This document shows positions 12,970 to 49,198 of a stretch of 64,000 nucleotides of DNA, one piece after another. The stretch comes from Patescibacteria group bacterium (GTDB lineage Bacteria; Patescibacteriota; Minisyncoccia; Phycocordibacterales; PALSA-1337). Positions within the stretch are counted from its first letter, which is position 1, and every line of letters starts with the position of its first letter. A program made the position numbers and the translations under genes. The stretch is taken from assembly GCA_018971685.1 (NCBI GenBank), contig JAGXAG010000001.1, positions 90,396-154,395 on the forward strand. Direction: 5' to 3'. The notes beneath the pieces were generated by a model. It worked only from the letters and a program-made list of their open reading frames with translations. It did no database searches and was not told the DNA's origin.

Positions 12970-13192
12970 TAAAGAAAGTGTTTTGGAAAGCACGACATTG
13001 TTTTTTGCGAATCTGCGGAACTCGCTTCCTAAATTTCTAGGCAAAAGCTCGCGGGATTGCTCGGCGCTCCGCATACGCTTTGCGCCGTAGCAATTCCGGC
13101 GAGAGCTCGCTTTTGCCAAGAAATTTATGGTCGCTCAGACAGGTCCTCGATTCGCAAAAAACGATGTCGTGCTTTCCAAAACGCTTTCTTTA
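12970..13192. repeat. 223-bp palindromic (MITE/REP-like) element with 44-bp terminal inverted repeats
   Basis: 12970-13013 versus 13149-13192, 2 mismatches; nested inner stems. Confidence 0.85.
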
Positions 13193-13197
13193 ACGCC

Positions 13198-13806
13198 ATG
13201 TTTACCATCATTTCAATCGTAATATTAATAATGTCCGTGATTATTCATGAACTGGCGCATGGATTCACGGCGAACGCGCTTGGCGATCCGACGGCGCGGC
13301 TTTCGGGCAGGCTGACTTTGAATCCGATAGCGCATATCGATCCGGTAGGGTCAATACTGGTGCCGCTGGTGACTTCGCTTTTCGGTTTTACTTTCGGCTG
13401 GGCGAAACCGGTGCCGTACAATCCGTACAACATCAAGAATAAGAGAACCGGCGAATTTCTGATCGCGGCGGCGGGACCGGCTTCGAATTTGTTGATCGCG
13501 ATTATCTTCGGCACTTTCATCCGTTTTGCGACCGCCGGCGCTACGACGATCACGCCTTTCATCGAGATTTCATCCTACATTGTTGTCATCAACATTATTC
13601 TGGCGATTTTCAATCTCATTCCTCTGCCGCCATTGGACGGTTCGAAACTTCTCTTTGCCATCCTTCCGAACCAATACGGCCGCACCCGCATGGTCCTCGA
13701 AGCCTATGCGCCGGTCTTCGTGCTCATTGTTGTCTTTTTCTTGTGGCAAATCGTGGCACCGGTTATTCCGGTCTTATTCAGGTTGTTAACGGGCATAGGG
13801 TTTTGA
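13198..13806 (+). CDS. Site-2 protease family (M50) membrane peptidase
   Basis: HELAH, AAGPASN, FNLIPLPPLDG; start at ATG 13198. Confidence 0.93.
   Translation: MFTIISIVILIMSVIIHELAHGFTANALGDPTARLSGRLTLNPIAHIDPVGSILVPLVTSLFGFTFGWAKPVPYNPYNIKNKRTGEFLIAAAGPASNLLIAIIFGTFIRFATAGATTITPFIEISSYIVVINIILAIFNLIPLPPLDGSKLLFAILPNQYGRTRMVLEAYAPVFVLIVVFFLWQIVAPVIPVLFRLLTGIGF
13709..13806 (+). repeat. Direct repeat, left copy: last 98 bp of the M50 gene
   Basis: Matches 14928-15025 with a 22-bp identical 5' core and 17 mismatches in total. Confidence 0.9.
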
Positions 13807-14905: not shown

Positions 14906-14927
14906 TATCAATCCAAAAAAGATCATT

Positions 14928-15025
14928 CGCCGGTCTTCGTGCTCATTGTCGTTTTCTTCTTGTGGCAGATCGTGGCACCGGTTATTCCGTTCGTTTTCAG
15001 GCTGTTTACCGGAACCAGTTTCTAA
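14928..15025 (+). repeat. Direct repeat, right copy: orphan 3' end of the M50 gene
   Basis: Encodes PVFVLIVVFFLWQIVAPVIPFVFRLFTGTSF-stop, collinear with the M50 C-terminus. Confidence 0.9.
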
Positions 15026-29257: not shown

Positions 29258-29474
29258 TTTTATCTCACCTCGCTATTTTCCCTGAATGTTTGGCCTTTTC
29301 GTCAAAGCAACCAAGAAAGTCATTGAGACGATAACTCTGTATATTGTCGGGTATTATTGACGGCTGTAGATAACGGCATTTGCTTTTCAGGTGGGGGGGG
29401 CGTACTATTAACGCCAGGAATAAAGGGCCAACATCGTAAGGCTCTATTAATAAACTGTAAGTCTATTATTTATC

Positions 29475-31031
29475 ATGAAGAAATCTTTATTTTCATTCGT
29501 TGTTCCATTGGCAGCGGTTTTTGCGTTTGCGGTAACCGTATTCATCCCGGCACCGGCAAGTGCGCAGACCACGCCGATTTGTCCTGCCGGTTACACTTGT
29601 ACGCCCATTAATCCTCAACCCATGAATTGTCCGGCGGGGTATATTTGCACGCCGACAAGCCTGCCTGCGCAAACATATTGCCATACTTTCAATACCAATT
29701 TAGGCATTGGCAGTTCTGGCGACGAAGTAGCCGCTTTGGTAAAAGTTTTGGGTATGGACGGTGAAGCGTTGGGTGTCGGCGGTTACTATAATCAATTTAA
29801 CGAAAATGTCGCATCAGCAGTCTCGTCATTCCAAGAGAAATACTCTTCAGACATTCTTACTCCAGTCGGCTTAACTTATGGCACCGGTTATGTCGGCGCG
29901 TCGACTCGGGCGAAATTGAATCAGTTATATGGATGCGTGACGACCAGCAATCAGAGTTCGCATGTAATATCATATCTTCAAGCGGCGGCCGAAGACAAAA
30001 ATATTATGCATGCCGGAGAACAAACCTGGATTTATGGATCGGGACTTTCTAGCGCTCAATATATAATGATAAACGGTCAAAGTGTGCCGATGTTACACTC
30101 TAGCGATACCTCGGTCTCGTTTTATGCGCCTTCATCGTTGCAAAATGGCACCGCTTCCATTTATGTCGGAGATCAAACTCTTTGGACAAGTAACTCAATT
30201 ACCGTTCAAACTGTAGCAAACGCCGCGAATTCTTCTTGTGCCTCCGGCCAAACATGGAACGGCACGGCGTGCGTAACAACGCAACCTTCAATCACCGTCT
30301 TGAGCCCGAATGGGGGACAGGTTTTCAATTCAGGAGGAACACTTACGGTAAATTGGAGTGCAAACAACATACCTGCGGCAGATTATTATCTATTCGTCTA
30401 CCTAAAGACCAAGCCGGATCAGATACTGGGCGGAACCGTATCCAATACCTATATTCCGCTTATGTTTAGAATCCGAAATGGAACAATGTTGACTTCGTCG
30501 TATACTACCAACATCACTTCGCCAGATACAAAAGGTGGCGGTGTAAGTCCCGGAGCGTATTATATTGAAGTTGATGCCGCTGATGAAAATGGCAATGTAT
30601 ACGCATCCGGAACAAGTAACGGAACCATTACCATTACTCCCCCAACTCCAGTGTCCGCAGTATCGCCCTCGATCACTTCGATTACCCCGACATCCGGCGT
30701 AGCGGGCGGCAAGGTACAGGTGACGCTTTACGGAACGGGTTTCATTCAGGGTACGCAAGTGTCATTCACAGGTCCGGTCGGTCCGTCGGCGACGAATACG
30801 CAAGTGCCGGCGTCGTCGATTTCCGCCGATGGAACCAGCCTGACTGTGGCTATGCCGACAACACTGACACCGGGCACTTACAATGTAAGAGTGATAAATA
30901 CTAACGGCATGAGCGCCAGAGCGGTATTCACGGTGACGCAATCGCCCAGCACGCAAACTTCCAGCATAATGGACGCACTCAGGGCGTATTGTAATAGCGG
31001 AGGCCAGTATTGCGACAGTTCGTGGAGGTAA
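29475..31031 (+). CDS. Secreted protein with CPxGYxC repeats, a peptidoglycan-binding domain and IPT/TIG-like domains
   Basis: Signal peptide; CPAGYTC and CPAGYIC; TGYVGASTRAKLN; SPNGG; PSITSITP. Confidence 0.75.
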   Translation: MKKSLFSFVVPLAAVFAFAVTVFIPAPASAQTTPICPAGYTCTPINPQPMNCPAGYICTPTSLPAQTYCHTFNTNLGIGSSGDEVAALVKVLGMDGEALGVGGYYNQFNENVASAVSSFQEKYSSDILTPVGLTYGTGYVGASTRAKLNQLYGCVTTSNQSSHVISYLQAAAEDKNIMHAGEQTWIYGSGLSSAQYIMINGQSVPMLHSSDTSVSFYAPSSLQNGTASIYVGDQTLWTSNSITVQTVANAANSSCASGQTWNGTACVTTQPSITVLSPNGGQVFNSGGTLTVNWSANNIPAADYYLFVYLKTKPDQILGGTVSNTYIPLMFRIRNGTMLTSSYTTNITSPDTKGGGVSPGAYYIEVDAADENGNVYASGTSNGTITITPPTPVSAVSPSITSITPTSGVAGGKVQVTLYGTGFIQGTQVSFTGPVGPSATNTQVPASSISADGTSLTVAMPTTLTPGTYNVRVINTNGMSARAVFTVTQSPSTQTSSIMDALRAYCNSGGQYCDSSWR

Positions 31032-31043
31032 AGTAATCGCGGT

Positions 31044-31078
31044 AAAACCACCACGAGGTCCGACCTCGTGGTGGTTTT
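31044..31078 (+). terminator. Hairpin terminator with a GGTCCGACC core
   Basis: AAAACCACCACGAGGT-CCG-ACCTCGTGGTGGTTTT. Confidence 0.7.
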
Positions 31079-31216
31079 TATGTTGACAAATAAGGTGTTT
31101 GCACATTTTGTACCCAAAGGTGCGAAAAAACGGTAAAAAACGCACCTTAAGGTACGAAATATGCTAATTTTAAGAAAAAATTTATAGAATAATTGAATTG
31201 ATGCTATAATCAACGC

Positions 31217-32737
31217 ATGAAAATATTCAAGCGTTTTCGGTTGAGAACTTATGTAATCGCTGGAATAATAATTCTGGTAATCGTATTCATAGCCGTGGCA
31301 AGCCGCGGATCCTCGGTATCGAACATAGAGTCCGCCGCCGTGACCAGGGGCAATATCGTCGAGCAAGTGAGCGTAACAGGCAAAGTGTCGCCGATCGACA
31401 AAGCCGACCTCGCTTTCGAGAAAAGCGGCGTAATTTCCAAAATCTTTGTGAAAGTCGGCGACAGCGTCAAGGCCGGCGACAAAATCGCGGCGCTGGACAG
31501 CGCCGGCGATCTCGCCAATCTGCAGTCGGCGCAAGCCAAACTCGACGATATGACCAGGACTTTGCGTCCCGAAGAATTGAGCGCCGAGCAGGCTAAAGTT
31601 GACTCGGCGAAAACTGCGCTGGATAACGCCAAAACCGACGCCTTGAACGCCGCGCGCGACGGATATGTCGAGACGGAAGGCGCAGTGGTAAATTATGCCG
31701 ACGCGTTCTTTACCAACCCACAAAGCGCCAATCCGACCATAAAAGTGACGACGCAGTCGCAGACTCAGGAAAATAGCATCGACGCCGAGCGCGTGGCCGT
31801 CACGGACGAATTGGCGGCGTGGCAAGCGGATTTGGCCGCGGCGACTTCGACGGATCGGGCCGCGTATTATCTATCGCGCGCGCACGGCCACCTTTCGATG
31901 ATCAAGAATTTCATGAACGATCTTTCCGGCATCGCGAACTATTTGAGCCCGGGCAATTCCGGGCTGGTGCAATCGGCAATCGATGCATATGTCGGCGCCA
32001 TGAATTCGGCGCAATCGGCGCTGAATCAGGCGATTTCCTCGGTAACAACGGCGGAAGCGGAACTGCAAAACGCTTCCGCGGCATACGACGAGGCGCGCAG
32101 CAATTTCATCCTGAAAAACGCCGGTTCTTCGCCGGAAGCGATCGCGGCACAGCAAGCTTCGGTGGCGTATTACCAGTCCGCTCTGGATAACGATGTCCTG
32201 GTTTCGCCGATCGACGGATTGGTTACGCGCGTCGATCCGAGCGATGGTGAATTTGTCTCGGCCGGGCAATCGGCGTTCTCGGTGCAGAGTTACGGCGATT
32301 ACAAGGTGGAAGCTTATGTGCCGGAAGCGGACATCGCCAAAGTGGCCTTGAATAATACCGCGGCGATCACGCTCGACGCTTACGGTCCGGATGTCAACTT
32401 TCCGGCGGTAGTTACCGCCATTGATCCGGCCGAAACGGTTCTGGAAGGCGTGCCCACTTACAAAGTCACCATGCATTTTACCCAAAAAGACGATCGCGTC
32501 CGCTCGGGCATGACGGCCAATACGGAAATCTTGACTCACGAACACGACAATGTGCTTACGATCCCCACGCGCGCCGTGGTCGACAATAGCGGCCAGAAAT
32601 CCGTGCGCGTCCTCGACGCCGACGGCAAAACTTACCGATCGGTGCCGGTCGTCGCCGGTCTGAAAGGGTCGGACGGCATGACGGAGATTATTTCGGGGCT
32701 TACGGAAGGGCAAAAGGTGGTGACTTATGTGAAGTAA
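31217..32737 (+). CDS. Efflux periplasmic adaptor (MacA/HlyD-like)
   Basis: V.VGDSVKAG lipoyl-like motif, coiled coil, SPIDG, E.ISGL.EG. Confidence 0.9.
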   Translation: MKIFKRFRLRTYVIAGIIILVIVFIAVASRGSSVSNIESAAVTRGNIVEQVSVTGKVSPIDKADLAFEKSGVISKIFVKVGDSVKAGDKIAALDSAGDLANLQSAQAKLDDMTRTLRPEELSAEQAKVDSAKTALDNAKTDALNAARDGYVETEGAVVNYADAFFTNPQSANPTIKVTTQSQTQENSIDAERVAVTDELAAWQADLAAATSTDRAAYYLSRAHGHLSMIKNFMNDLSGIANYLSPGNSGLVQSAIDAYVGAMNSAQSALNQAISSVTTAEAELQNASAAYDEARSNFILKNAGSSPEAIAAQQASVAYYQSALDNDVLVSPIDGLVTRVDPSDGEFVSAGQSAFSVQSYGDYKVEAYVPEADIAKVALNNTAAITLDAYGPDVNFPAVVTAIDPAETVLEGVPTYKVTMHFTQKDDRVRSGMTANTEILTHEHDNVLTIPTRAVVDNSGQKSVRVLDADGKTYRSVPVVAGLKGSDGMTEIISGLTEGQKVVTYVK

Positions 32738-32770
32738 TGGATGACTTGTTTGCGTGCCTGGTGTAAATGC

Positions 32771-33862
32771 ATGAAAGATTTATTCACGCGGTCAAAATCG
32801 AATCCGATCTTGAAACCCAATCCGGATAACGGCTGGGAGTCATTGAAAGTTTATAATCCCGGTGCCATTTTCCATGAAGGCAAATATCATCTCTTTTACC
32901 GCGCGGTCGGCAAAAGCGAGGATGCTCACTCCGCCATAGGCTATGCGACTTCCGTTGACGGCGAACATTTCGATCGATATCCAAAGCCGATACTTGACCG
33001 TGAAGAAGGCAACCCCCTTGAACTCCGCGGCTTGGAAGATCCCAGAATCACGAAAATCGGAGACACATTTTATATGGCATATGCGGCATATGATGGTAAG
33101 TTACCCAGACTTTGCACTGCAGAGTCAAAAGATTTGGCAATCTGGCATAAACAGGGGATTGCGTTTAAAAATTTTGACTTTATAAGTACCGATGGCAGAT
33201 TTTGGGGATTAAAAGGAGAAGGCAAATTTAGAGTGAACGCGGCGACGAAAAAGCAAAAAAATAACTGGAGCAAATCAGGCGCTATCTTTCCAGAAAAGAT
33301 TAACAATAAATACTGGATGATTTTTAATGATCCTACGATTTGGATAGCGAATTCGGACGATGCTATAAATTGGAACCTTGCCGTCAAAGAACCGTTGATT
33401 TACTCACGAACCAGTACTGATTTATTTGACAATTTGTATGTCGAAGTCGGTCCGCCGCCGATTAAAACCAATAGAGGGTGGTTTGTTATGTATCATGGGA
33501 TTAATGAATTACATCAGTATCAATTGGGATTTGTGCTTTTAGAACTTAATAATCCGTTGAAAGTCATCTATCGTTCCAGTGGACCTATATTCGGACCAAG
33601 AGAAGAATATGAACTTGGTGGCATGGTCGATATTGTACCAGGCGTTATGGATTTGATTTGGGAAGGTGATGAACGAAAAATCAAGCTACATCTGAAAGAA
33701 GCGGAGGCGAAAGGTTTCATGCCGCAGGTCGCATTTGTTCCGGCGGCCGTGCTAGTCGATGGTAATCTGCGCTTATTCTACGGCGCCGGCGATCAATACA
33801 TCTGCACCGCAACCGCACGAATCGACGATATTCTAGCGACGATTGATTCGGTTCAGGCTTGA
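32771..33862 (+). CDS. Five-bladed beta-propeller glycosidase/phosphorylase (GH130-like)
   Basis: VYNPGA, GLEDPRI, GPPPIKT..GW...YHG, YGAGD. Confidence 0.8.
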   Translation: MKDLFTRSKSNPILKPNPDNGWESLKVYNPGAIFHEGKYHLFYRAVGKSEDAHSAIGYATSVDGEHFDRYPKPILDREEGNPLELRGLEDPRITKIGDTFYMAYAAYDGKLPRLCTAESKDLAIWHKQGIAFKNFDFISTDGRFWGLKGEGKFRVNAATKKQKNNWSKSGAIFPEKINNKYWMIFNDPTIWIANSDDAINWNLAVKEPLIYSRTSTDLFDNLYVEVGPPPIKTNRGWFVMYHGINELHQYQLGFVLLELNNPLKVIYRSSGPIFGPREEYELGGMVDIVPGVMDLIWEGDERKIKLHLKEAEAKGFMPQVAFVPAAVLVDGNLRLFYGAGDQYICTATARIDDILATIDSVQA

Positions 33863-33893
33863 CTACTAAGCACATGGCGATATAATTGTGGTT

Positions 33894-34103
33894 ATGAGTA
33901 AAATAACCATATCAAAAACCGAATATTCAAACCTAAAGAAACAGTCGAAAGCTTATAGAGTTGTCATGGCCAGATTATTCGAGTTGTTGATAAAAGATCC
34001 CGTCAAATCAGTCGTAGACGATTTTCGTAAAATCGGCCTGTATTCTGACGGATTCCTGTCCGATCTGGAAGCGGGATTGCGCAAATCTTCCTACGGTGGT
34101 TAA
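33894..34103 (+). CDS. Small putative antitoxin
   Basis: Short gene directly upstream of a RelE-like toxin; TATAAT 7 nt upstream. Confidence 0.6.
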   Translation: MSKITISKTEYSNLKKQSKAYRVVMARLFELLIKDPVKSVVDDFRKIGLYSDGFLSDLEAGLRKSSYGG

Positions 34104-34111
34104 TCAACGGC

Positions 34112-34363
34112 ATGAAAATTGAACCTCTTCGGAGAGATCTTCTTGAATATTTGAACAGCCACAAGCTTGCCTCCAAATGGAAGAAGTCCGCAAGATTATT
34201 TGAGACTAATGTGCGCCATCCGTCACTTCATGTGGAATTGCTGGAGCCGAAATGGCACGGCATTTATTCTTTCAGGATTGATAAAAAATATCGCGCCCTG
34301 TTTTTCATAGTAGACGGAGCTTCTGCGGAAGTATTTCAGATTACCAATCATTACAAGAAATAA
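34112..34363 (+). CDS. RelE/HigB/YoeB-like toxin
   Basis: HPSL..E.L, IYSFRIDKKYRALF, NHY. Confidence 0.8.
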   Translation: MKIEPLRRDLLEYLNSHKLASKWKKSARLFETNVRHPSLHVELLEPKWHGIYSFRIDKKYRALFFIVDGASAEVFQITNHYKK

Positions 34364-34406
34364 AATCGATGAAGACGGGCAATAAATTCAAGGGACTGAA
34401 AACAAA

Positions 34407-35126
34407 ATGGATATTATCGTAGCAAAAGACTTGCGAAAGTCATACAAGGATGGTGAGGCCGAGACGGTCGCTTTGGACGGCGTTTCATTCACGGTGAGGA
34501 AAGGGGAGTTCATGGCGATCATGGGGCCGTCGGGGAGCGGCAAGTCGACACTGTTGCATGTTTTGGGATTACTCGACGAGCCGACGAGCGGGCACTACGG
34601 CTTCAACGGCAAGGATACTTCCGAATATTCGCGTGACGAGTTGGCGGATCTGCGCAATCGGGAAGTTGGCTTCGTTTTCCAGGCGTTCAATCTGCTACCC
34701 AGGACTTCGGTGCTCGAGAATGTCAAACTGCCGCTTTATTATTCAGGCATCGATGAGAGCGAATGGGAAAATCTCGCCAAAAAAGCGGTTGAAGATGTCG
34801 GGCTCGGGCAGCGCATGTATCACGAACAGGCCGAACTTTCCGGCGGCGAAAAACAGAGAGTCGCCATTGCGCGGGCGCTCGTCACCGACCCGGAAGTGAT
34901 ATTTGCCGACGAGCCGACCGGCAACCTCGATTCCAAATCGGGCAAGAATGTCATGTCGATCATTCAGCACCTGAATGAAGAGCACGGCAAAACAATCGTC
35001 CTTATCACCCACGAAACTTCCACGGCCGAACATTCCGAGCGCATTATCCGGCTTCTGGACGGGAAAATTGAGAGCGATGAGAAGGTCGCAAAACGCTTGA
35101 CGGCGGATGATGAGTTTGTGAAATGA
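34407..35126 (+). CDS. ABC transporter ATP-binding protein (MacB/LolD-like)
   Basis: [30 protein letters not shown]. Confidence 0.95.
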
Positions 35127-35197
35127 AGCGCAGGTGCCTGTTTTGTCGATCACGGTGAGCCAGTCAAATTGATTCAAGTAAAACCGAAAATTTCCAA

Positions 35198-36436
35198 ATG
35201 ACTTACAAACATATATTCAATACGGCGATCAGAGGACTGTCGACCAACCGGTCGCGCTCTTTCCTGACGATTTTCGGCATAGTGATCGGCATCACGGCGA
35301 TCATGCTGGTGGTGTCTTTGGGCGCGGGCGCGCAGGATCTGATACTCGGCCAGGTGCAGGGTCTGGGCACGAATACCATAGCCGTTATTCCCGGCAGGGA
35401 ACCGACCGGACCGTCCGATGTGACCGCCCTATACAGCGACTCGCTCAAGGACAAGGACATAACCGCGCTCACCAATAAAGGCAATGTGCCGTATTTGAAA
35501 AGCATCATGCCCGTGGTCTTCGGCGCCGGCGCTTCGTCTTACGGTTCCAATACCTATCAAGTGACCATATTCGGCGGCACCGATCTCGTCGCCGAAGTAT
35601 TCGATCTGCATCCGTCCGAAGGCCAGTTTTTTGACGCCAGCGACGTGCCGTCCCGTTCAAATGTGGCGGTCATCGGTTCCGATGTCGTCGATCACTTGTT
35701 CGACGGGCAAGATCCTGTAGGGCAAAATATCAAAGTAAAGAGCCGGAACCTGCGCGTGGTGGGCGTATTGCCCAAGTCCGGCGGCGGCACTCTCTTCAAT
35801 TTCGATTCTATGGTCATAATGCCGTATACTACGGCGCAGGATTACATTCTGGGTCAGAAATATTTCAGCCGCATAATCATACAAACCGAGACGGATGCGG
35901 AAGTGGCGGTTACGGCCGAGGACATCAAGCTCACCCTACGGGATTCTCACGGGATCACCGATCCGACCAAGGACGACTTTACGGTCCAAACACAGCAGGA
36001 TCTGGCCAACAGGCTGGGAACGATCACTTCGGCGCTCACCTGGTTCCTGGTGGCGGTGGCATCAATCGCGCTTTTTGTCGGCGGCGTCGGCATCATGAAT
36101 ATCATGCTGGTGGCGGTGACGGAACGCACGCGGGAGATCGGCCTTCGGAAAGCGCTGGGCGCGACGGATCGCGATATTCTGTCGCAATTCTTGCTGGAAG
36201 CGGTCTTGCTCACGGCGATCGGCGGAGCGATCGGGATATTCTTGGGGACGGTGTTAGCGTTCGTGATCTCGGTCGGCCTTTCGAAAGGCCTGGGCGTGAA
36301 CTGGCAGTATGTTTTCCCTTGGGGCGGCGCGCTCTTGGGTTTCGGCGTGTCGGCGCTCGTCGGTCTTGTTTTCGGCGGCTATCCGGCCAGCCAAGCGAGC
36401 AAAAAGAGTCCGATCGAGGCGTTACGGTATGAGTGA
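35198..36436 (+). CDS. ABC transporter permease (MacB/FtsX family)
   Basis: GGVGIMNIML.AVTERTREIG, PIEALRYE. Confidence 0.95.
   Translation: MTYKHIFNTAIRGLSTNRSRSFLTIFGIVIGITAIMLVVSLGAGAQDLILGQVQGLGTNTIAVIPGREPTGPSDVTALYSDSLKDKDITALTNKGNVPYLKSIMPVVFGAGASSYGSNTYQVTIFGGTDLVAEVFDLHPSEGQFFDASDVPSRSNVAVIGSDVVDHLFDGQDPVGQNIKVKSRNLRVVGVLPKSGGGTLFNFDSMVIMPYTTAQDYILGQKYFSRIIIQTETDAEVAVTAEDIKLTLRDSHGITDPTKDDFTVQTQQDLANRLGTITSALTWFLVAVASIALFVGGVGIMNIMLVAVTERTREIGLRKALGATDRDILSQFLLEAVLLTAIGGAIGIFLGTVLAFVISVGLSKGLGVNWQYVFPWGGALLGFGVSALVGLVFGGYPASQASKKSPIEALRYE
36373..36436 (+). repeat. Direct repeat, left copy (attL-like): 3' end of the permease gene
   Basis: 64 bp matching 42333-42396; first 45 bp identical, 4 synonymous mismatches. 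Confidence 0.95.
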
Positions 36437-36552
36437 GGCATTGTTCCAAGTTTTCTCTTTCATATAAAATAATAACGGCGATCTTAAAGACGCTTAAATT
36501 ATCCACAGGTAAATCTTAAATTCGGCGTTGTTTTTTTGTTATAATTTGATTC

Positions 36553-38457
36553 ATGAAGAGAGCGATTGTCATGATTTCTTTCGGTTCGGTATTGATTCTT
36601 ACCCCGTTTTTTGAGGTTATGGCGGCTGGGTATGGAGATACCGGTTGGGGGATAACGGCTACGGTTACCAATGCATGGCAAAGCGTAGTATGTACGGTGG
36701 GATCGTGGATGTCGATAGCCCCGGCGTATTGCGGTTATGAAGAGAAAGCGGCCAACAAACCGACAGTACCAAAGACACCGTCATTAAACACCGTCATTTC
36801 CCGTGATTCAATCGGCTCAAGGCAAATCGCCGAACCGGTTCAAACATCACGGTTTTTGTCACCGACGGTGCCGTCTGTATCAGGTAAGGCCGATATCCAA
36901 TCGATAGTGAACGAAGCCGTAGCTGTGGCTTTATCTAAACTCCAGATCCCCGCCAACCAATCGCCAAGTCCCGCCGATATCACCGGTCGCGCATCGACTT
37001 CCCCAACCAATTATGCCAATACTATTCCACCGGACATATACCGTTTTGTTTCCGATCAGGCCTCATCGAACGGTTACAGTGCAGGTCAAGCCGTATCGAA
37101 CAGTGCATCGGCCATAACCTCCGCATATACTTCCGCCATATCAGACGCCGTTACCGGCGGGCTTACCGCCTTCGATGGTTCGACTCTGCATGCGGGTACA
37201 AGCACCTTAGGCCAACTTACGGCAGGATCAACCACACTCTCAAGCCTAAATGTATCCGGAAATGCTGCCGTAACAGGCGCTCTCACTGTCGGTTCTCTGG
37301 TTTCGGGCGGTCAGACCATAGGAGGTAACTTCGGTGTTAGTGGCACGACCACCCTAGCTACTACAACGGTTAGCAATCTATCGGCTTCAACTATGAGTAT
37401 TGGTTCATTGAGCGGTATACTATATGGGAACAATGGGATTGTCGGGACTACCAGTTTGTCCAGTCTCACTTCAAACATTATATCCACACAAGGCAATACT
37501 ATAACTTCAAATATAAACGGTGTACAGGCTAGCGCCTTATTGCCGTATGCGTCGGCTTCGAGCGACGGTTAGGTTTCCACCACCACCCAGTCATTTTCCG
37601 GTAACAAGAATTTCTCAGGATCATTGACGGCAGGTTCGACCACACTATCATCGCTGTCAGTCACAGGTTCGACATCTTTGGCGTCGCTTGCAGTCAGCGG
37701 CGTTACGGCATTGTCAGGTCCTCTTACGGTCTCTCTCGGTAGCCTGTCCGGGTCTGATACTTATTATGATATGAGTAAAATAGCAAATTACAATCAAATG
37801 TCCATAAGCTCCGGACAGATACAACTGTCTCTGGCGTGGACTTGTGGAAGTCACACTCTGGTAGGCCCAGACGGTTTGACCTATGGTACTGTCGTCGGGG
37901 CTGACGGCAACTGCTGGCTGGACAGGAACCTAGGCGCTACGGAAGTAGCCACAGCCTACAACGATGCCAATGCATATGGTTACTACTATCAATGGGGACG
38001 CGGTATGGATGGCCACCAGATATCTACCAGTTTGACCACAAATACTCTATCCTCCACTGACCAGCCGGGCAACAGCAATTTCATATTGGCGCCAAGCTCT
38101 CCTTATGACTGGCGTAGTCCGCAGAATAACAATCTATGGCAAGGAGCGTCGGGAGTAAACAATCCTTGTCCGAATGGATTCCGCTTGCCGACTAACCAGG
38201 AATGGTCGAACCTGGTATCGGCGGCGGGAATTACCGATTACTCAACAGCTTTCAGTTCCTCATTGAAACTAACACTAGCCGGCGACCGCGACTACTCCTC
38301 CGGTAGTCTCAGCCCTCAGGGAGGTTTCGGTCTCTACTGGTCGAGCTCAGTCTCCGGTGCGAATGCTTTCTCCCTGTACTTCAGCTCTTCCGGGGTTAGC
38401 CCTTCGTACTCGTACTACCGGGCCTACGGCTTCTCGGTTCGTTGTATAAAGAATTGA
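36553..38457 (+). CDS. DGR target protein (Ser/Thr-rich stalk plus C-terminal CLec/FISUMP-like variable domain), interrupted by an in-frame TAG at 37570-37572
   Basis: ORFs 36553-37572 and 37624-38457 share one frame; CWLDRNLGA, YYQWGR, NPCPNGFRLPT, YWSSS, GFSVRCIK. Confidence 0.85.
38276..38451 (+). repeat. DGR variable repeat (VR)
   Basis: 176 bp ungapped match to 39001-39176; 19 of 20 mismatches opposite TR adenines. Confidence 0.97.
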
Positions 38458-38486
38458 CAATTTATCAATTTGACAATTAAAAAATT

Positions 38487-39209
38487 ATGGCGCTCTACTA
38501 CACATTGCCGATATACAAATCTAGTTACAAACTTGCTTTCTTGTTGTTCGATGCCTCTACCCATTTTGCCAGAGAGTATAAATATACTGTTGGTCAGCAA
38601 TTGAAAGACGAAGCGATGAAATTGGTTAAAAATGTGTATAGAGCCAATAAAGCTATTGATAAAAATTGTGCCATAAATGAGGCGAGAGAAAATGCGGAAA
38701 TGATACGGCTGATGGTCCGTCTGATGAAGGATTTCAATCAGCTTAGCCTGAAAAAATTCCTGGAAATCAATCTGTGCATAGAAGATGTGTCCAAGCAACT
38801 CACTTCTTGGGGAAAGAGCTTTAGGACAAAATTATCAATACCGCCTGAATCGTCTGTAGCCAGAGCCCAGACGAGCGTGCGGAGCAAATTCAATGGCCCC
38901 CTTGCCTCATCAGGCAAGGAATATCGTCCGGATCACGGATGTGTTTCGCCGTCCCGTACTCATGGGGAAGGTGCGACAAATACAGAGGCCATAATCACAG
39001 TAGCCGGCTACCGCGACAACTCCTCCGGTAGTCTCAACAATCAGGGAGGTAACGGTAACTACTGGTCGAGCTCAGTCTCCGGTACGAATGCTTTCAACCT
39101 GAACTTCAACTCTTCCGGGGTTAACCCTTCGAACACGAACAACCGGGCCAACGGCTTCTCGGTTCGTTGTATAAAGCATTTGCAAATAGCGTATGAAAAA
39201 GTCAATTAA
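38487..39209 (+). CDS. avd: Avd-like four-helix-bundle accessory protein; ORF continues in frame through TR
   Basis: LPIYK..Y, F.REYKYTVG..LK, SKQLTSW; no stop until 39209. Confidence 0.85.
   Translation: MALYYTLPIYKSSYKLAFLLFDASTHFAREYKYTVGQQLKDEAMKLVKNVYRANKAIDKNCAINEARENAEMIRLMVRLMKDFNQLSLKKFLEINLCIEDVSKQLTSWGKSFRTKLSIPPESSVARAQTSVRSKFNGPLASSGKEYRPDHGCVSPSRTHGEGATNTEAIITVAGYRDNSSGSLNNQGGNGNYWSSSVSGTNAFNLNFNSSGVNPSNTNNRANGFSVRCIKHLQIAYEKVN
39001..39176 (+). repeat. DGR template repeat (TR)
   Basis: Copy of VR containing 14 AAY codons, located between the Avd domain and RT. Confidence 0.97.
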
Positions 39210-40377
39210 CGACAACCCGCAACTACTTTTGAACTTGTTCAAGGCATATTATGATGCCCGTAGGCACAAGGGTTTGTCTGCCAATGTTCTGGCTTTTTCG
39301 GCTGATTATGAGAGCAAATTATTCAAACTCTATGAAGATATTCTAGATCGAAGATATGTCATAGGGCCAAGCGTATGCTTCATCGTCAATCGGCCGGTAA
39401 AGCGAGAAATATTCGCCGCCGACTTTCGCGACAGGGTTGTTCATCATCTAATATTCAATTATCTCAATCCTATAGTTGAGAGAGATTTTATAAAGGATAG
39501 TTATAGTTGCAGATTGGGGAAAGGCACTTCTTATGGCGTGCGCAGAGTTAATCATTTTCTGCATTCTTGCTCAGAGAACTATACTCACGAGTGTTGGATC
39601 ATGAAACTGGATATACGAGGTTACTTTATGTCTATGAATAAAGATATTCTATACGGCAAGGTAAAAGAAGTCGTCGATAAGGCGAGAAATATATCTTTTG
39701 ACAAGGAACTCCTCATGTATCTGGTGAATAAAGTTGTATACCACGATCCTGTCACTAATTGTCGTATAAAAGGCGACAGATCAGACTGGGTGGGATTGCC
39801 AAAATCAAAAAGTTTGTTTTTCGCCGAAAAGAACCGAGGATTTCCTATAGGGAATCTCACTAGTCAACTATTCGGGAATATATACATGAATAGGTTCGAC
39901 CATATAATAAAGGAAGATCACAATTTTAAGCATTATGGCCGATATGTTGATGATATGATCTTCGTGCATAAAGACAAGGGGACATTGGCGTCCACGATCC
40001 CGATCGTAAAAAAGTATCTTTTTGAAGAACTTGGGTTGGAATTACATACCAAAAAGATATATTTACAGCCGTCTGCTGTCGGTGTTAGCTTTTTGGGGGC
40101 TTACATAAAGCGATGGTGCCAATATGTCGGAAAAAAGACCAAGACTAATTGTTATACTAGAATCAGTAGGTGGAATTCAGAAGTTAATAAAAACAGCTAC
40201 GACAAGTTTTTATCTTCGATGAATTCATATCTTGGATTTATGAGCCAATACGATACTTATAGGCTTCGCCAGAAAGTCATGTCAAAATTAAGCCGCCAGA
40301 TTGTATCGAAACTGATCATTTCCAAAGATTTTTCTTCGATAAAAATAAATTCTGCAGCGAATACATTACGAACATGA
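39193..40377 (+). CDS. DGR reverse transcriptase
   Basis: FRDRVVHH, KLDIRGYF, GFPIGNLTSQ, RYVDD, SFLG; 394 aa, no endonuclease domain. Confidence 0.96.
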   Translation: MKKSINDNPQLLLNLFKAYYDARRHKGLSANVLAFSADYESKLFKLYEDILDRRYVIGPSVCFIVNRPVKREIFAADFRDRVVHHLIFNYLNPIVERDFIKDSYSCRLGKGTSYGVRRVNHFLHSCSENYTHECWIMKLDIRGYFMSMNKDILYGKVKEVVDKARNISFDKELLMYLVNKVVYHDPVTNCRIKGDRSDWVGLPKSKSLFFAEKNRGFPIGNLTSQLFGNIYMNRFDHIIKEDHNFKHYGRYVDDMIFVHKDKGTLASTIPIVKKYLFEELGLELHTKKIYLQPSAVGVSFLGAYIKRWCQYVGKKTKTNCYTRISRWNSEVNKNSYDKFLSSMNSYLGFMSQYDTYRLRQKVMSKLSRQIVSKLIISKDFSSIKINSAANTLRT

Positions 40378-42326
40378 GAAACAAGCCATCAACAATTCGA
40401 GCGATTGTCACGACGGTTATTATACCAGCAATAGGATTTGCAATACTTTTAGGTATGACGCCAGCCATGGTTATGGCTTCCGCGACCTACTTTTCTTCCG
40501 GTACTGTCAGCTCGACTAACTTACTATCAGGCAGCACAGCATCGTCCATAAACGACTTCTATTACAACTTGTCATCTCTTCCGGGCAACTCAAGTGTTAC
40601 GGTCCAATTCAGCCAAGACGGAACAAATTGGTATTCGGCCGCCGGTACGCTCAACGCTTCCACGAGTATTTCTACCATCGGCGGGGCTACGATCGATCTG
40701 TCAGCTTTGCACTGGTCCGGTTCGTCTTTCTACTATAAGTTTACTTTCTATGCCACTACCGATCAAACCGGCACGCCGGTCATAAACGGAGTCAGAGTCG
40801 ATTATTCGACATCCGGTTCGAATGGCGGCATATTCGCCATAAATAACGGCGGCCACATAGCGGTGGGTACGACTTCTGCCCTGTCGACTCTCGACATAGC
40901 GGGCGGTACAGCCATAGGGACTTATGCCGGCACCGCCGCCGCTCCCAATAACAGTTTGATATTGAGCGGTTTTTTGGGCGTGGGTACTTCTACTCCATCC
41001 AGCAAACTTACCGTGGCGGGAGACGGTTATCTATCCGGCAATCTGACGGTCAACGGCTCGCTCAGCGTGGCTGGTTCTCTATTCCAGATCAACTCTAACG
41101 GAACTTTTACGGCGTCGAGCACGCAAGCTTCGGCGGCTACATCCACCGTATACGGCAATCTCAATGTTACCGGCAACCTGCACGGCCAGACTATTACTTC
41201 GGGCGATCTTGTATTCGCGAACGCTTTCCGGTTCACTGAAGCGCGGCTCGACGGTTCACCACAAGGTATTTTGCTCAAGAATCAGTATGGTTCGACAACT
41301 TTGTCTGTAGATGAGAACGGCAATCTAACCGTTTTGGGCGACATATGTTCCAATGGGAATGTTTCATGTTGGGGCAGATCCATAGTCGATCTGAACAGCG
41401 GCCTAGCTTCTCTGGCTTCATCTACCATGCTTGATATATCCGCCAATGCCGCTTCTACTACGAGGTCGATGTCCGAACTATCTTCAGATATCGACAAGAT
41501 CGACTGGTCTTTGAATCGTGTGTCTTCGAGGTTAGATGCACTGGCTTCATCCAGTCTGACTATGTCCGCTCTGGCCTCGGCCACCGATGCCATGGCCTCT
41601 TCGGCCGGATCGATCTTGGCTTCTTCGACATCGTTCATCCAGAGCGTATCCCAAGCCGTTAACAGCGCCATCCAGTCCACAGGTCAATGGCTTGCGAACC
41701 AAATAACGGTTGCCAAGGGTATCTTTACCGAGCTTACAGCCGGCAAGGCTGACATTCAGACGGCCAATATTCAAACGCTCTGTATCGGCCAGACTTGCGT
41801 GTCAGAGAGCCAATTCAAGGCGATGTTGGCGCACGAGAATGTGACGCCGGTCCAACCATCCCCGATGTCGGCGCAGAGCAGTTCGACGAACATTACGACT
41901 GATACTGCGACAGCTCCCGCTGCCACGACCGCTTCTACGACAATGCCTGCGGCTGTGTCGGCAGGTACCTCTATAATTGCAACTTCATCCACTGACCGGG
42001 CAGATCAGACAGCGACCACTTCTGTAGGCGTTGTTCCCGCGGCTTCTACGACATCAGCCACGATCATGGTTTCGGAAGCTTCCGGAACATCGACTGCCGC
42101 CGCGGTATCAGAGACTTCAACCACTTCAACGGCAACGGTTTATACAACTCTGCCGATCATGAGTTCGACCACTACGGTATCTGCCCCGGTTGAACCGGCG
42201 GCATCGTCCGTTTCCGAATCGTCGACCACGGCGGTCGACCGTGTTTCCGCGGCTCCCACACCAATCACAGATATGACTACCACCGGCACCGCTCCTGCGC
42301 AGGCGTCAACTTCAGCGGCCCACTAA
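40374..42326 (+). CDS. Secreted fibre-like Ser/Thr-rich protein, translationally coupled to RT
   Basis: ATGA overlap with the RT stop; signal-like N-terminus; GVGTSTP..KL.V.G repeats; LCIGQTCV; S/T/A-rich tail. Confidence 0.8.
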   Translation: MRNKPSTIRAIVTTVIIPAIGFAILLGMTPAMVMASATYFSSGTVSSTNLLSGSTASSINDFYYNLSSLPGNSSVTVQFSQDGTNWYSAAGTLNASTSISTIGGATIDLSALHWSGSSFYYKFTFYATTDQTGTPVINGVRVDYSTSGSNGGIFAINNGGHIAVGTTSALSTLDIAGGTAIGTYAGTAAAPNNSLILSGFLGVGTSTPSSKLTVAGDGYLSGNLTVNGSLSVAGSLFQINSNGTFTASSTQASAATSTVYGNLNVTGNLHGQTITSGDLVFANAFRFTEARLDGSPQGILLKNQYGSTTLSVDENGNLTVLGDICSNGNVSCWGRSIVDLNSGLASLASSTMLDISANAASTTRSMSELSSDIDKIDWSLNRVSSRLDALASSSLTMSALASATDAMASSAGSILASSTSFIQSVSQAVNSAIQSTGQWLANQITVAKGIFTELTAGKADIQTANIQTLCIGQTCVSESQFKAMLAHENVTPVQPSPMSAQSSSTNITTDTATAPAATTASTTMPAAVSAGTSIIATSSTDRADQTATTSVGVVPAASTTSATIMVSEASGTSTAAAVSETSTTSTATVYTTLPIMSSTTTVSAPVEPAASSVSESSTTAVDRVSAAPTPITDMTTTGTAPAQASTSAAH

Positions 42327-42332
42327 GAGTGG

Positions 42333-42396
42333 CGGCGGCTATCCGGCCAGCCAAGCGAGCAAAAAGAGTCCGATCGAAGCCCTCCGGTATGAGTGA
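42333..42396 (+). repeat. Direct repeat, right copy (attR-like): orphan permease 3' end
   Basis: Encodes GGYPASQASKKSPIEALRYE-stop, identical to the permease C-terminus. Confidence 0.95.
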
Positions 42397-42682
42397 TTGA
42401 AATTTCGCGCGATGTCAGCCGATAAACCATTCGTGGGCCGGCACGATCTCTATTTTTGCGCCATCGAGTTCAATAACCTCTTTCCAGAAATTTATTATGT
42501 CTCTTATTTTTTCGTCGTTTTTTGTGGTCATGTTTAAGTCAAGTATATGTTACTAAATACTATAAAATAAGTCAAGTATACATGACTTATTTGTAAATCT
42601 CTCAAGAAATCCAAGTATTAAGCCATTTTTTGTCATTTTTTTATCGCAATTAATTAACAGTGACTATTATTGTGCGCATCAA

Positions 42683-43504
42683 TCAGTTCACCGAAGGCAA
42701 TACGATCTTGAAAGTCGACCCTTTGCCGGCGCCGGGAGAAGAGACCTCGATCCGGCCGCGGTGGCGGCGGACGATGGAATCGGCCAAATAGAGGCCGACG
42801 CCGAAACCTTCGGTATCAGCCGATACGGCGTTTTTGCCGCGGAAGAATTTCGAAAACAGGCGGGGGAATTCTTCCGGAGAAATGCCGATGCCTTGGTCCG
42901 AGACAGTGATGGCCGCTTTTGCGCCAATTTTGGAAACATCGACGCGCACACTTTTGCCGGGCGGAGAGTAAAGGCGGGCATTGTCAAAAAGGACCTGCAG
43001 GGCGAATTCCACGCGCGCCTTATCGACTTTGACATAAATCGGTTCGCGGTCGCATTCGACGGAAAAGAAAATATTTTTTTCATGAAAAGAATCTTTCGCC
43101 AAACCGGCGACGCGGCGCGTGAGTTCGCAGAGGTCGGTCTTTTCGAACAAATAAGCCGCCCGGGCCAGGCCGTCTGAGTCGGCCAGTTCGACAAGCGTAC
43201 CGGTCAGATCTATCAATTGGCGATTTGCTTTCGCGATCTGGCCCAAGCTCTCCAGTTTGTACGGATCCTGTTCCGCGGAGGCCATGCTCTCGATGAGCCA
43301 TTTGACCTGCGAAAGCGGTGTCTGGAATTTGTGGGCGATGATGGTGATAAACTCCTCTTTTAAGTCCTCATTTTTCCTCGAGGAGAGATTTAGCATGTAA
43401 ACAAGAAGAAAAATGAGCGCAATCGCCGCGACGAATAACACCATGACCAATGTCGAATGGTCGGCTATATAGCTTTCGATGGACAAGACCGCTTCGGCGC
43501 TCAT
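42683..43504 (-). CDS. Orphan membrane-anchored histidine kinase
   Basis: AHKFQTPL H-box, DNA..Y, DQGIGI, G.GVGL; start MSAEAV 6 nt after TATAAT. Confidence 0.88.
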   Translation of the reverse strand: MSAEAVLSIESYIADHSTLVMVLFVAAIALIFLLVYMLNLSSRKNEDLKEEFITIIAHKFQTPLSQVKWLIESMASAEQDPYKLESLGQIAKANRQLIDLTGTLVELADSDGLARAAYLFEKTDLCELTRRVAGLAKDSFHEKNIFFSVECDREPIYVKVDKARVEFALQVLFDNARLYSPPGKSVRVDVSKIGAKAAITVSDQGIGISPEEFPRLFSKFFRGKNAVSADTEGFGVGLYLADSIVRRHRGRIEVSSPGAGKGSTFKIVLPSVN

Positions 43505-43527
43505 ATTTTCATTATACAGCAATGTCC

Positions 43528-43556
43528 TTGACCGGAAAACGGCGCTCTGTTAATAT
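43528..43556 (+). promoter_or_regulatory. Putative sigma70 promoter for the rpsS segment
   Basis: TTGACC-17-TAATAT with extended TG. Confidence 0.6.
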
Positions 43557-43595
43557 GTTTTCAAGCTCCGCAACGGGCTTATTTATTTCAAAAGG

Positions 43596-47209: not shown

Positions 47210-49198
47210 ATGACGCAAAAGGAGGCATTGGAAATATTGAAGACCGGCGCGAATGTTTTCTTGACAGGCGCGGCCGGAAGCGGCAAGACGCACATCCTGC
47301 GGGAATATTTGGCGTGTTTGAAAGAGCGTAAAATCCCGGTCGGAGTGACGGCTTCGACCGGCATTGCCGCCACGCATATGGGCGGAGTCACCATACATTC
47401 ATGGTCCGGAATAGGAGTCAAAGACCAATTGAGTGATTGGGACATAGACGAAATATCGCAGCGGGAAAAATTATCGGCCAGAATAAACGCCGCCAAAGTA
47501 CTGGTGATCGACGAAATCTCGATGCTGCACCACTATCAGCTGGACATGGTGAACCGCGTGCTCAAGTCTGTGCGCAATTCGCCGGAGCCGTTCGGCGGAT
47601 TGCAGGCGGTCGTCTGCGGGGACTTCTTCCAACTGCCGCCGGTCTCGCGCCGGCCGAGATCGTTCGACGCGGACGGGATGCTCTTTATCGACGACGATTA
47701 TGATGCGGACGGCAAAGCCAGGTTCGCGTACCATTCGCGGGCGTGGCGGGAGGCGGAGTTTGCGGTGTGCTATTTGGAGGAAAATTACAGGCAAAGCGAC
47801 GAACAATATTTGCAGGTGTTGAACGCGATCAGGAATTCCGCGGTCACCGATGAAATCGTTGAAATCTTGAAGAGTCGATTCAAGGCGGCAATTCCGCCGT
47901 CTGCTCTGCCAAATAAAGCGGTTGCCGAAGCGTCCCGCGGCACAAGTTTTTTGAGTTCCGCGACTCCGCCGCGAAGCAATCCGTCGCCGCGTTTCCCAAC
48001 CGACAAGTCCGTGTATGTCCGAGAGGGCTTGTCGGTTGCGGAAACGCCGACGGTTGCGAGCGGCATTCGCGGAACTCAAAAAACTTGTGCCGCGGGACGC
48101 GAATCTGTTACCAGATTGTATTCTCATAACGCCAATGTCGACGCGGAGAACGAGCGGGAGCTGGCGAAATTGAAAACGCCTTTGCAAAAATACGAAATGA
48201 CCGGGCGCGGCAAGAGACATTTGGTCGAAGCGCTCAAGAAGAGCTGTCTGGCGCCGGAAGTGTTGAAATTGAAAGATGGCGCCAAAGTGATGTTCGTGAA
48301 GAATAATTTCGAAAAAGGATTCGTGAACGGCACTACCGGGATCGTGAAGAAATGCACGCCGTTCGAAATCGTGGTGGCGACCGATAAAGGGCATGTGCGG
48401 GTCGAAACGGAGTCGTGGCACATCGAAGACAACGGCAAAATCCTGGCGGAAATCGAGCAGTACCCTCTGCGGCTGGCTTGGGCGATAACGATACACAAAA
48501 GCCAAGGCATGTCGCTGGATGCGGCGGAAATCGATCTGTCTCAGTCGTTCGAAAAAGGCATGGGCTATGTGGCGCTTTCCAGGGTGAAAACTTTGGATGG
48601 TCTATCGCTTTCCGGCCTGAATAAAACCGCGCTTGAGATACACGGAGAGGCGTTGGAGTACGACAAATCATTCAGGGAACAATCGGACAGAGCGGCGGCG
48701 GAATTGGCGGTTATGCCGGAAGAGGAATTGAAGAGAAGGCAAACAGGATTCTTGGGGCCGGAGCCGGCGCGCACAAATATGACCAGAAAATCCCACGCCT
48801 CGCGAAGCGAGGTACCCCCTTTTTCAAAGGGGGATTTCGCGCGGCGAGACCAGGAAACTGGTTCTGCGAATGGGTCCAGAGAACCGAAAATACCGACGAC
48901 GGAACGAACAAGGCGATTATTGGATGCCGGAATGACGGTGGGAGAAGCGGCGGCGGCCAGGGGGTTGAAGGCGGAGACTATCATCAACCATATCGGACTG
49001 ATCAAGCGCGCGGATGATTCTTGGGACATTTCGAGGTTCAGATCAATCATACCGGCCGACAGACTGGAGAAGATCATTGAAGCGTTCAACGGATCGAAAC
49101 CGGGCGCGGACGGCTTGCCGCCGCTCACTCCGGTAAAACAAAGATTGGGCGCGGGGTATTCGTATGAGGAGATAAAAATCGCGAGGCTGTTCCTGTGA
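47210..49198 (+). CDS. PIF1/RecD-like helicase with C-terminal HTH, carrying two in-frame palindromic inserts
   Basis: GAAGSGKT, ASTGIAA, DEISM, GDFFQLPP, AITIHKSQG, YVALSR. Confidence 0.92.
   Translation: MTQKEALEILKTGANVFLTGAAGSGKTHILREYLACLKERKIPVGVTASTGIAATHMGGVTIHSWSGIGVKDQLSDWDIDEISQREKLSARINAAKVLVIDEISMLHHYQLDMVNRVLKSVRNSPEPFGGLQAVVCGDFFQLPPVSRRPRSFDADGMLFIDDDYDADGKARFAYHSRAWREAEFAVCYLEENYRQSDEQYLQVLNAIRNSAVTDEIVEILKSRFKAAIPPSALPNKAVAEASRGTSFLSSATPPRSNPSPRFPTDKSVYVREGLSVAETPTVASGIRGTQKTCAAGRESVTRLYSHNANVDAENERELAKLKTPLQKYEMTGRGKRHLVEALKKSCLAPEVLKLKDGAKVMFVKNNFEKGFVNGTTGIVKKCTPFEIVVATDKGHVRVETESWHIEDNGKILAEIEQYPLRLAWAITIHKSQGMSLDAAEIDLSQSFEKGMGYVALSRVKTLDGLSLSGLNKTALEIHGEALEYDKSFREQSDRAAAELAVMPEEELKRRQTGFLGPEPARTNMTRKSHASRSEVPPFSKGDFARRDQETGSANGSREPKIPTTERTRRLLDAGMTVGEAAAARGLKAETIINHIGLIKRADDSWDISRFRSIIPADRLEKIIEAFNGSKPGADGLPPLTPVKQRLGAGYSYEEIKIARLFL
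47930..48100. repeat. 171-bp palindromic element inserted in frame in the helicase gene
   Basis: Perfect 34-bp terminal inverted repeats; GAA on both flanks. Confidence 0.88.
48788..48837. repeat. Short double-hairpin REP-like element inside the helicase gene
   Basis: CCTCGC-GAA-GCGAGG followed by CCCCCTTT-TTC-AAAGGGGG. Confidence 0.6.

Follow-up and report, generated by a model that had tools for sequence, protein, structure and literature searches.

A permease gene end duplicated around a retroelement cassette and other cargo in Patescibacteria is most likely the scar of integrase-free gene pick-up

The question addressed here is by what means the streamlined Patescibacteria acquire genes and how the numerous diversity-generating retroelements (DGRs) found in them move. 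We analysed a 64,000-nucleotide stretch (the window) of the 750,657-bp genome of a Patescibacteria group bacterium (GCA_018971685.1, contig JAGXAG010000001.1), in which a DGR cassette lies between two copies of the 3′ end of an ABC permease gene. This tail duplication is most likely the scar of an integrase-free pick-up of genes, not a special vehicle of the DGR. The two tails derive, as their codon differences show, from two functional alleles; the same scar recurs at the same gene end in other genomes around unrelated cargo, and the cargos have neither a recombinase nor shared ends.

The permease (35198..36436, + strand; 412 amino acids; Pfam MacB_PCD and FtsX) is of the MacB/FtsX type, is intact and is the last gene of a MacAB-like operon sitting between rplB and rpsS. 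Its final 64 bp (36373-36436) recur as a direct repeat at 42333-42396, 5,960 bp downstream from start to start, enclosing an insert of 5,896 bp, and the right copy begins 6 nt past the stop of the last island gene, which encodes a 650-amino-acid protein (40374-42326). The copies are identical at 60 of 64 positions, including all of the first 45. Four mismatches, at −18, −15, −14 and −12 from the last base of the stop, fall in three codons and are all synonymous, so that both copies read GGYPASQASKKSPIEALRYE-stop, as an initial annotation of this DNA had reported. The chance that three changed codons would all lie among the last 6 of 20 is 0.018. The repeat is far beyond chance; in a search of the genome the next-best match had E = 0.1 for the left copy and E = 0.002 for the right copy, the latter in a paralogous permease (C14).

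Random substitutions in this tail would be synonymous in 21% of cases, and duplication followed by drift has p ~ 8 × 10−5 for the tail pairs of this genome and of the relative G173 (below) taken together. Because the differences are synonymous only, we conclude from the codons that the two tails derive from two functional alleles. Local duplication with drift, or descent of the right copy from a second full-length permease, is thereby largely refuted, and we give such origins very little credence. The former could appeal to a relative, G096, whose copies are identical apart from the stop codon, and the latter to a second MacAB operon downstream in some relatives (L049, L050 and L064), but nothing similar to a permease is encoded in the frame that leads into the right copy, and the peptide at the end of the paralogue in this genome is a different one, YYPARRASRLNPIEALRYE. 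The right copy is thus not the remnant of a paralogous permease that the initial annotation had considered. Its codons are about four-fold likelier under host usage, a faint hint that this orphan tail (42333..42396, + strand) may be the old, displaced host tail.

We compared the same permease end in relatives (genomes are labelled G, loci L). Among 164 genomes of the family, 60 others had an orthologous permease end among the matches listed, which leave 25 weaker ones aside; 55 of those loci were compared, five near contig ends being left out, and 49 had at least 2 kb downstream. The permease tail is duplicated at two of the 55, in both without an integrase. In G096 a 57-nt tail copy, 56/57 identical (only the last stop base differs), flanks purD. 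In G173, from another genus, a copy of 57–58 nt is 50/57 identical, with seven differing codons that are all synonymous, stop included, and the cargo is a gene for a 571-amino-acid protein with no Pfam match. Each of these tail pairs matches its own host and not this genome, and none of the three inserts (G096, G173 and this genome) holds a recombinase. At five of the 55 loci (G049, G016, G013, G047 and G163) a histidine kinase gene lies within ~65 bp of the permease, which is the empty arrangement; these genomes are other species, the closest at 87% protein identity. In this genome that kinase (42683..43522, − strand; Pfam HisKA/HATPase_c) is convergent and lies beyond the right copy. The comparison of relatives proposed in the initial annotation thus yielded empty and tail-duplicated loci, but none with this cassette at the permease.

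Wider scans added few cases. Genome collections (at least 120 loci, 80 of them with flanking DNA) yielded the already known G096 locus and L091, whose orphan tail of ~45 nt is shorter and more diverged, with two amino-acid changes; a metagenome scan for tails lacking the upstream Phe codon gave one contig, L205, on which the left copy is off the contig. A search for other copies of the core, also proposed in the initial annotation, found no match to the exact 44-nt core in metagenome contigs, and the degenerate tail pattern occurred in no viral contig. Across 400 order-level and 400 class-level genomes, overlapping draws with few members of this family, the orphan-tail pattern, which overlooks shorter or changed tails, was found only in this genome; it is rare outside this family. 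A partial match at L069 (G034) proved to be a distant permease fragment (33%) and was set aside. In a census of 151 loci (1.98 Mb), orphan 3′ duplicates stood at 3 of 108 permease ends and at 0 of 1,650 other ORF ends (Fisher p ~ 2 × 10−4), with the qualification that kin are not independent and many of the other ORFs are ribosomal operon genes; the census excludes DGR repeat pairs, intergenic repeats of low complexity and second copies that lie within full genes. The junctions lie 64, 57, 58, ~63 and ~45 nt from the stop. Six inserts were compared: they share no ends beyond chance matches of 11–16 nt, and no conserved arm was found beside the core when independent inserts were set against each other. 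Beyond each of the two copies, the DNA showed no informative similarity to what follows the permease in relatives. Separately, at L101 (1639-3941) a gene for a 353-amino-acid protein, 1.5 kb upstream of an ABC ATPase gene, begins with a copy (88%) of the first 50 bp of the ATPase gene, possibly a 5′-end version of the same scar.

The initial annotation had read the repeat as a route for DGR mobility. The cassette also occurs elsewhere: among the 164 family genomes the closest reverse transcriptases (RTs), 61% identical in G163 and 66% in G075, keep the order target, avd, template repeat (TR), RT and following gene, at other loci (in a surface-protein cluster and after lysS). No direct repeat was seen flanking these cassettes, the G075 locus being interrupted by contig ends. 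Behind the same permease, G021 (L058) and G017 (L060) carry unrelated DGR-like modules (RT ~30%), in G021 directly between permease and kinase; no tail copies or remnants were found around either. Relatives of the RT were not confirmed in any viral contig. Because the cassette travels without the repeat elsewhere and unrelated cargos, purD among them, sit at the same tail, the locus behind the permease is a general insertion hotspot and the DGR one cargo among several. A DGR-specific route is not supported.

Among 102 permease genes, DNA identity is 0.727 over the last 60 nt versus 0.578 over the preceding 60 nt. The step falls at a Tyr codon, which is also the starting point of the orphan tails, and the junctions at 64, 57, 58 and ~63 nt coincide with it. 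RecA, DprA and ComEC are encoded in the genome. A homologous anchor (the conserved tail), RecA and uptake genes are thus all present, as in homology-facilitated illegitimate recombination (HFIR). HFIR is expected to use 3–10 bp of microhomology at its other joint, usually with a deletion; the outcome here is a duplication.

In the model of the initial annotation, as spelled out here, a donor with a filled site releases a preformed circle of a relative's tail plus the DGR, this circle recombines in the 45-bp core, and regular excision and reintegration serve DGR mobility. The topology of the product fits, 45 identical bases would permit clean deletion with the permease left intact, and essentially this circle-plus-crossover displacement has been proposed for rhs C-terminal tips (Jackson 2009, PMC2935791). 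The scheme nevertheless needs a donor that equals the host over 45 bp yet differs at 4 of 19 positions beside them. Orthologues at genus level show 6 or more differences from this genome within the first 44 bases (10.7 on average); one of 1,176 orthologue pairs is identical over those bases, and 0/1,176 also have at least three differences in the rest. Since every donor–host difference stays in a plain crossover, and orthologues do differ, such a crossover with a relative's circle would not yield the 45 identical bases; it would need gene conversion or a different joint. As described, the closest cassettes are located elsewhere and a repeat was seen around neither, one of the two being truncated by a contig end. 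Among the 55 loci compared, none has this cassette at the permease, and the DGR target gene is interrupted. We regard this scheme as doubtful and do not expect it to hold.

What remains of the earlier model is the displacement: the permease is restored by the tail of a second allele, and its former tail ends up beyond the insert. This part is supported because the differences are synonymous only, the right copy is weakly more host-like in codon use, permease and kinase adjoin at five of the 55 loci and the right copy is not a paralogue remnant. A left copy (36373..36436, + strand) that serves as the working permease 3′ end and runs as host sequence to about −19 and then as donor allele, beside a right copy that is all host, would fit the repeat comparison better, as would crossover plus conversion. 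The polarity of an identical 5′ and a diverged 3′ part is seen in this genome, in G096 and in a second case in the window at a peptidase gene (below), and not in G173 or L091.

We therefore favour an integrase-free insertion with long target duplication, anchored by homology and carried out by host recombination, as the probable course of events. DNA of another lineage, in which the DGR cassette lies behind that lineage's permease 3′ end, would enter the cell, presumably by natural competence, and would pair with the recipient via the conserved last ~20 permease codons. One end would be joined by a homologous crossover inside the conserved block, near −19, leaving a left copy that starts as host and continues as donor sequence. 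Immediately beyond the last cargo gene, the second end would be joined without extended homology to the host ~64 bp before the stop. The permease would remain intact while the old host tail came to lie downstream. The intermediate may have been linear, or a circle end-joined ad hoc with gene conversion over the first 45 bp. Any cargo behind a donor permease could be captured in this way, with the DGR as a passenger. The uptake route, the order of the joints and the identity of the old copy are the parts of this scheme that we infer.

Several observations weigh against it. An illegitimate joint would not obviously place the junctions as close together as 64, 57 and 58 nt, and no junction falls in another block, at about −400 to −340, that is just as conserved. 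With its identical copies, G096 gives no sign of a divergent donor. Neither an empty site from this species nor a donor with the DGR directly behind the permease was found in our searches. Codon usage, at ~4-fold, gives weak support for the right copy as the old one. The excess of orphan tails at permease ends is a preference that a site-specific enzyme would also give. Classical HFIR, moreover, mostly leaves deletions and not duplications (PMC3240628).

Integrating elements that replace the 3′ end of a gene are well known, and site-specific integration is the main rival explanation. The repeats would then be attL and attR of a family of elements that insert at the permease's Gly-Tyr-Pro codons and bring a replacement tail, their integrase acting in trans or since deleted. 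Integrative elements of this kind, and their integrase-less derivatives, have a duplicated, synonymously recoded tail at both island ends, as here. The clustering of four junctions (64, 57, 58 and ~63 nt) and the census counts (3/108 against 0/1,650, kin not being independent) speak for such integration, and the recombinase search proposed in the initial annotation gave ten matches in the genome, to eight large serine and two tyrosine recombinases. At this site, however, no integrase, conserved arms or integrase-bearing member was found: the inserts of this genome, G096 and G173 lack a recombinase, the inserts share no arm, and the tail pattern is in none of the viral contigs. Recombinase matches occurred in 4 of 151 loci, all at least 5 kb from the permease end and without tail duplication, in a search with this genome's ten recombinases plus family scans that distant enzymes could escape. 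One tyrosine and one serine recombinase belong to a 75-bp-repeat island of their own at tRNA-Lys, and the conservation step accounts for the junction position without an enzyme. Site-specific integration seems unlikely to us. As a further candidate, a small element with a guide or a hairpin at the junction was considered and rejected; the longest target complement within 200 nt of the junctions is 5–7 nt here and at most 10 nt in any case.

A more speculative idea, quite improbable in our judgement, is an undescribed integron-like capture in Patescibacteria, in which unrelated genes would be placed at one particular codon within conserved gene tails by an activity that is encoded by the host or acts in trans. 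The activity would be a competence-linked end-joining step or an unrecognised recombinase, the site for example the permease Gly-Tyr-Pro, and the gene would always be regenerated.

The repeat itself is confirmed. The stretch is present in seven runs from two studies, all possible assembly sources, and we compared the contigs of four. Run contigs break at the 45-bp core, leaving the two copies unphased and filled and empty alleles indistinguishable, and the runs may themselves be the assembly source. All four junctions (permease–core, core–island, island–core and core–downstream) are nonetheless on contigs of these possible source runs, the rows listed hold no alternative letters at the four differing repeat positions, and the assembly's contig ends overlap by ~149 nt (from which its word length is inferred), more than the repeat. 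Island depth was similar to that of the flanks, at a ratio of 0.63–1.10 (four runs, at most three samples, possibly the assembly source); this ratio speaks neither for nor against an empty-site subpopulation or a replicating circle. A coverage hole at 36403-36536 in run X7 carries no weight. Because the four junctions are on contigs and the same structure occurs in independent genomes, misassembly of the island is unlikely, and misassembly or a strain chimera at the repeat as the source of the whole pattern strikes us as barely credible.

All features of the insert are on the + strand, in the order target with variable repeat (VR), avd, TR, RT and the gene for the 650-amino-acid protein. An AT-rich leader (36437..36552), with a TATAAT-like hexamer identified by eye, has no similarity to the ends of other tail-duplicated inserts. 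The 5′ part of the target gene (36553..37572) encodes 339 Ser/Thr-rich residues with a hydrophobic N-terminus and ends at an in-frame TAG (37570-37572); the 3′ part continues in the same frame (37573..38457) and encodes the Pfam Fib_succ_major domain that carries the VR (38272..38460). The target is thus one reading frame split by TAG, its N-terminal part cut off from the VR domain, a break that the initial annotation does not mention; TAG is an ordinary stop in this genome, ending 90 of 445 long ORFs, and the G075 homologue is continuous (766 amino acids). The gene for the Avd accessory protein (38487..38852; Pfam bAvd, phrog_3206) is followed by a spacer (38843..38999) that matches Rfam RT-7 below threshold (44 bits against a gathering threshold of 116.8; E 4.6 × 10−8), the TR (38997..39185, identified by repeat comparison with the VR) and the RT gene (39193..40377; 394 amino acids; Pfam RVT_1, phrog_1423). 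The Ser/Thr-rich 650-amino-acid protein (40374..42326) has no Pfam family, and its gene also follows the RT in the G075 and G163 cassettes. TR and VR differ at 24 positions, 19 at TR adenines and the other five at the two ends. RT, Avd, TR and a VR with adenine-specific differences are thus all present, and the cassette is a DGR. No VR variants were among the listed rows of run contigs, which at ~11–17x drop rare variants. In Pfam, the island's five proteins matched Fib_succ_major, bAvd, RVT_1 or no family, and PHROGs gave Avd and RT only, with no integrase, transposase or phage structural family, in agreement with the initial annotation. GC content at third codon positions is 0.42 for RT and 0.46 for avd, against 0.61–0.71 for permease, ATPase, kinase and ribosomal genes; values of 0.44 and 0.48 in two further neighbouring genes are low as well. 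We further observed that the avd frame stays open through spacer and TR to 39209 (240 amino acids), likewise in G075 (236) and G163 (239), and that a second TR/VR-like pair (117 bp, 87%) lies at C3:56266-56872, where an RT query found no full RT.

The window holds a second tail duplication. The 3′ end (~99 nt) of an M50 peptidase gene (13057-13806) recurs 1,219 bp downstream (~14925-15025), just before rpsL, around a HEPN plus nucleotidyltransferase pair and no integrase. The copies differ at 18 positions, in nine synonymous and six non-synonymous codons, with differences rising toward the 3′ end. Among the 164 genomes, two matches to this tail occurred only in this genome and in G155, whose second match was not located in the 6 kb compared. 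Elsewhere in the genome, islands at C11:17544-27092 (tRNA-Lys) and C5:9152-21275 (tRNA-Arg) have 71–75-bp direct repeats touching the tRNA 3′ end; the former carries serine and tyrosine recombinases and the latter has no recombinase match. Between rplB and rpsS, the S10 ribosomal cluster is interrupted by ~14 kb (29258-43595) that hold a surface protein, the MacAB-like exporter, a glycosidase, a RelE-like pair, the DGR island and the kinase, and gene content behind the permease varies widely among relatives. A ~170-bp palindromic element (47930-48100), one of many such palindromes in the genome, lies in frame in a helicase-like ORF (47210-49198).

The name insertion with long target duplication is reportedly attached to Nobusato 2000 together with Furuta 2010. 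As set out by Furuta, Abe and Kobayashi (PMC2853133), such insertions have repeats above 30 bp, an insert below 20 kb, no mobile genes and restriction-modification cargo; their cases have repeats of 44–47 bp (Table 2), often over a stop codon with the gene intact, come mostly from competent species and leave the mechanism open. The repeat here is likewise longer than 30 bp, the insert is under 20 kb without any other mobile-element gene, and the gene is intact. Those insertions were ascribed to DNA cutting by their restriction-modification cargo, whereas the cargo here is a DGR, purD, a HEPN pair or unknown genes. Because its cargo is a DGR cassette and not a restriction-modification system, we file the present case as a variant and not a member of this class. 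New relative to the known kind are the non-restriction cargo, the recurrence at one conserved gene end with clustered junctions, and two synonymous alleles with a readable polarity.

Displacement of gene ends is known from rhs (PMC2935791) and from type VI secretion effectors, for which HFIR was invoked (Kirchberger 2017, PMC5361080). As here, homology of the conserved part anchors incoming DNA and the old 3′ end is shunted downstream without an integrase; there the C-terminus changes and arrays build up, whereas here the protein is unchanged and the gain is downstream cargo. In Escherichia coli conjugation, 56 of 60 clones had partial target duplications of 109–950 bp, attributed to a single crossover of a trimmed, recircularised donor (PMC3240628). 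HFIR and this trimmed donor would share with our case a RecA-type anchor at one end and a non-homologous joint at the other. Transformation can also create duplications between sister chromatids (PMC3784515). Natural competence is documented in Saccharibacteria (PMC10633639, PMC10187176), and a survey names competence, conjugation and transduction as likely routes, its main text containing none of the terms integrase, recombinase and direct repeat (PMC12455944). The cassette follows DGR architecture B1, with its avd–TR–RT core (Wu 2018, PMC5758913), in the order target-VR, avd, TR, RT and in its adenine-specific differences; it departs from it in the target split by an in-frame stop and the conserved extra gene after RT. 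Horizontal DGR transfer is documented there, and nothing could be concluded on phage association of DGRs from the candidate phyla radiation. Our literature search, with subscription papers mostly outside it, found no account of this scar in Patescibacteria or around a DGR.

The scar does not demonstrate a DGR-specific mobility system, and the DGR target is interrupted. If the integron-like route were true, it would move DGRs, metabolic genes and defence pairs without a cargo-borne mobility gene. A scar that recurs at one conserved gene end around three unrelated cargos, with junctions within 7 bp, offers a concrete substrate for a test of integrase-free gene capture in Patescibacteria.

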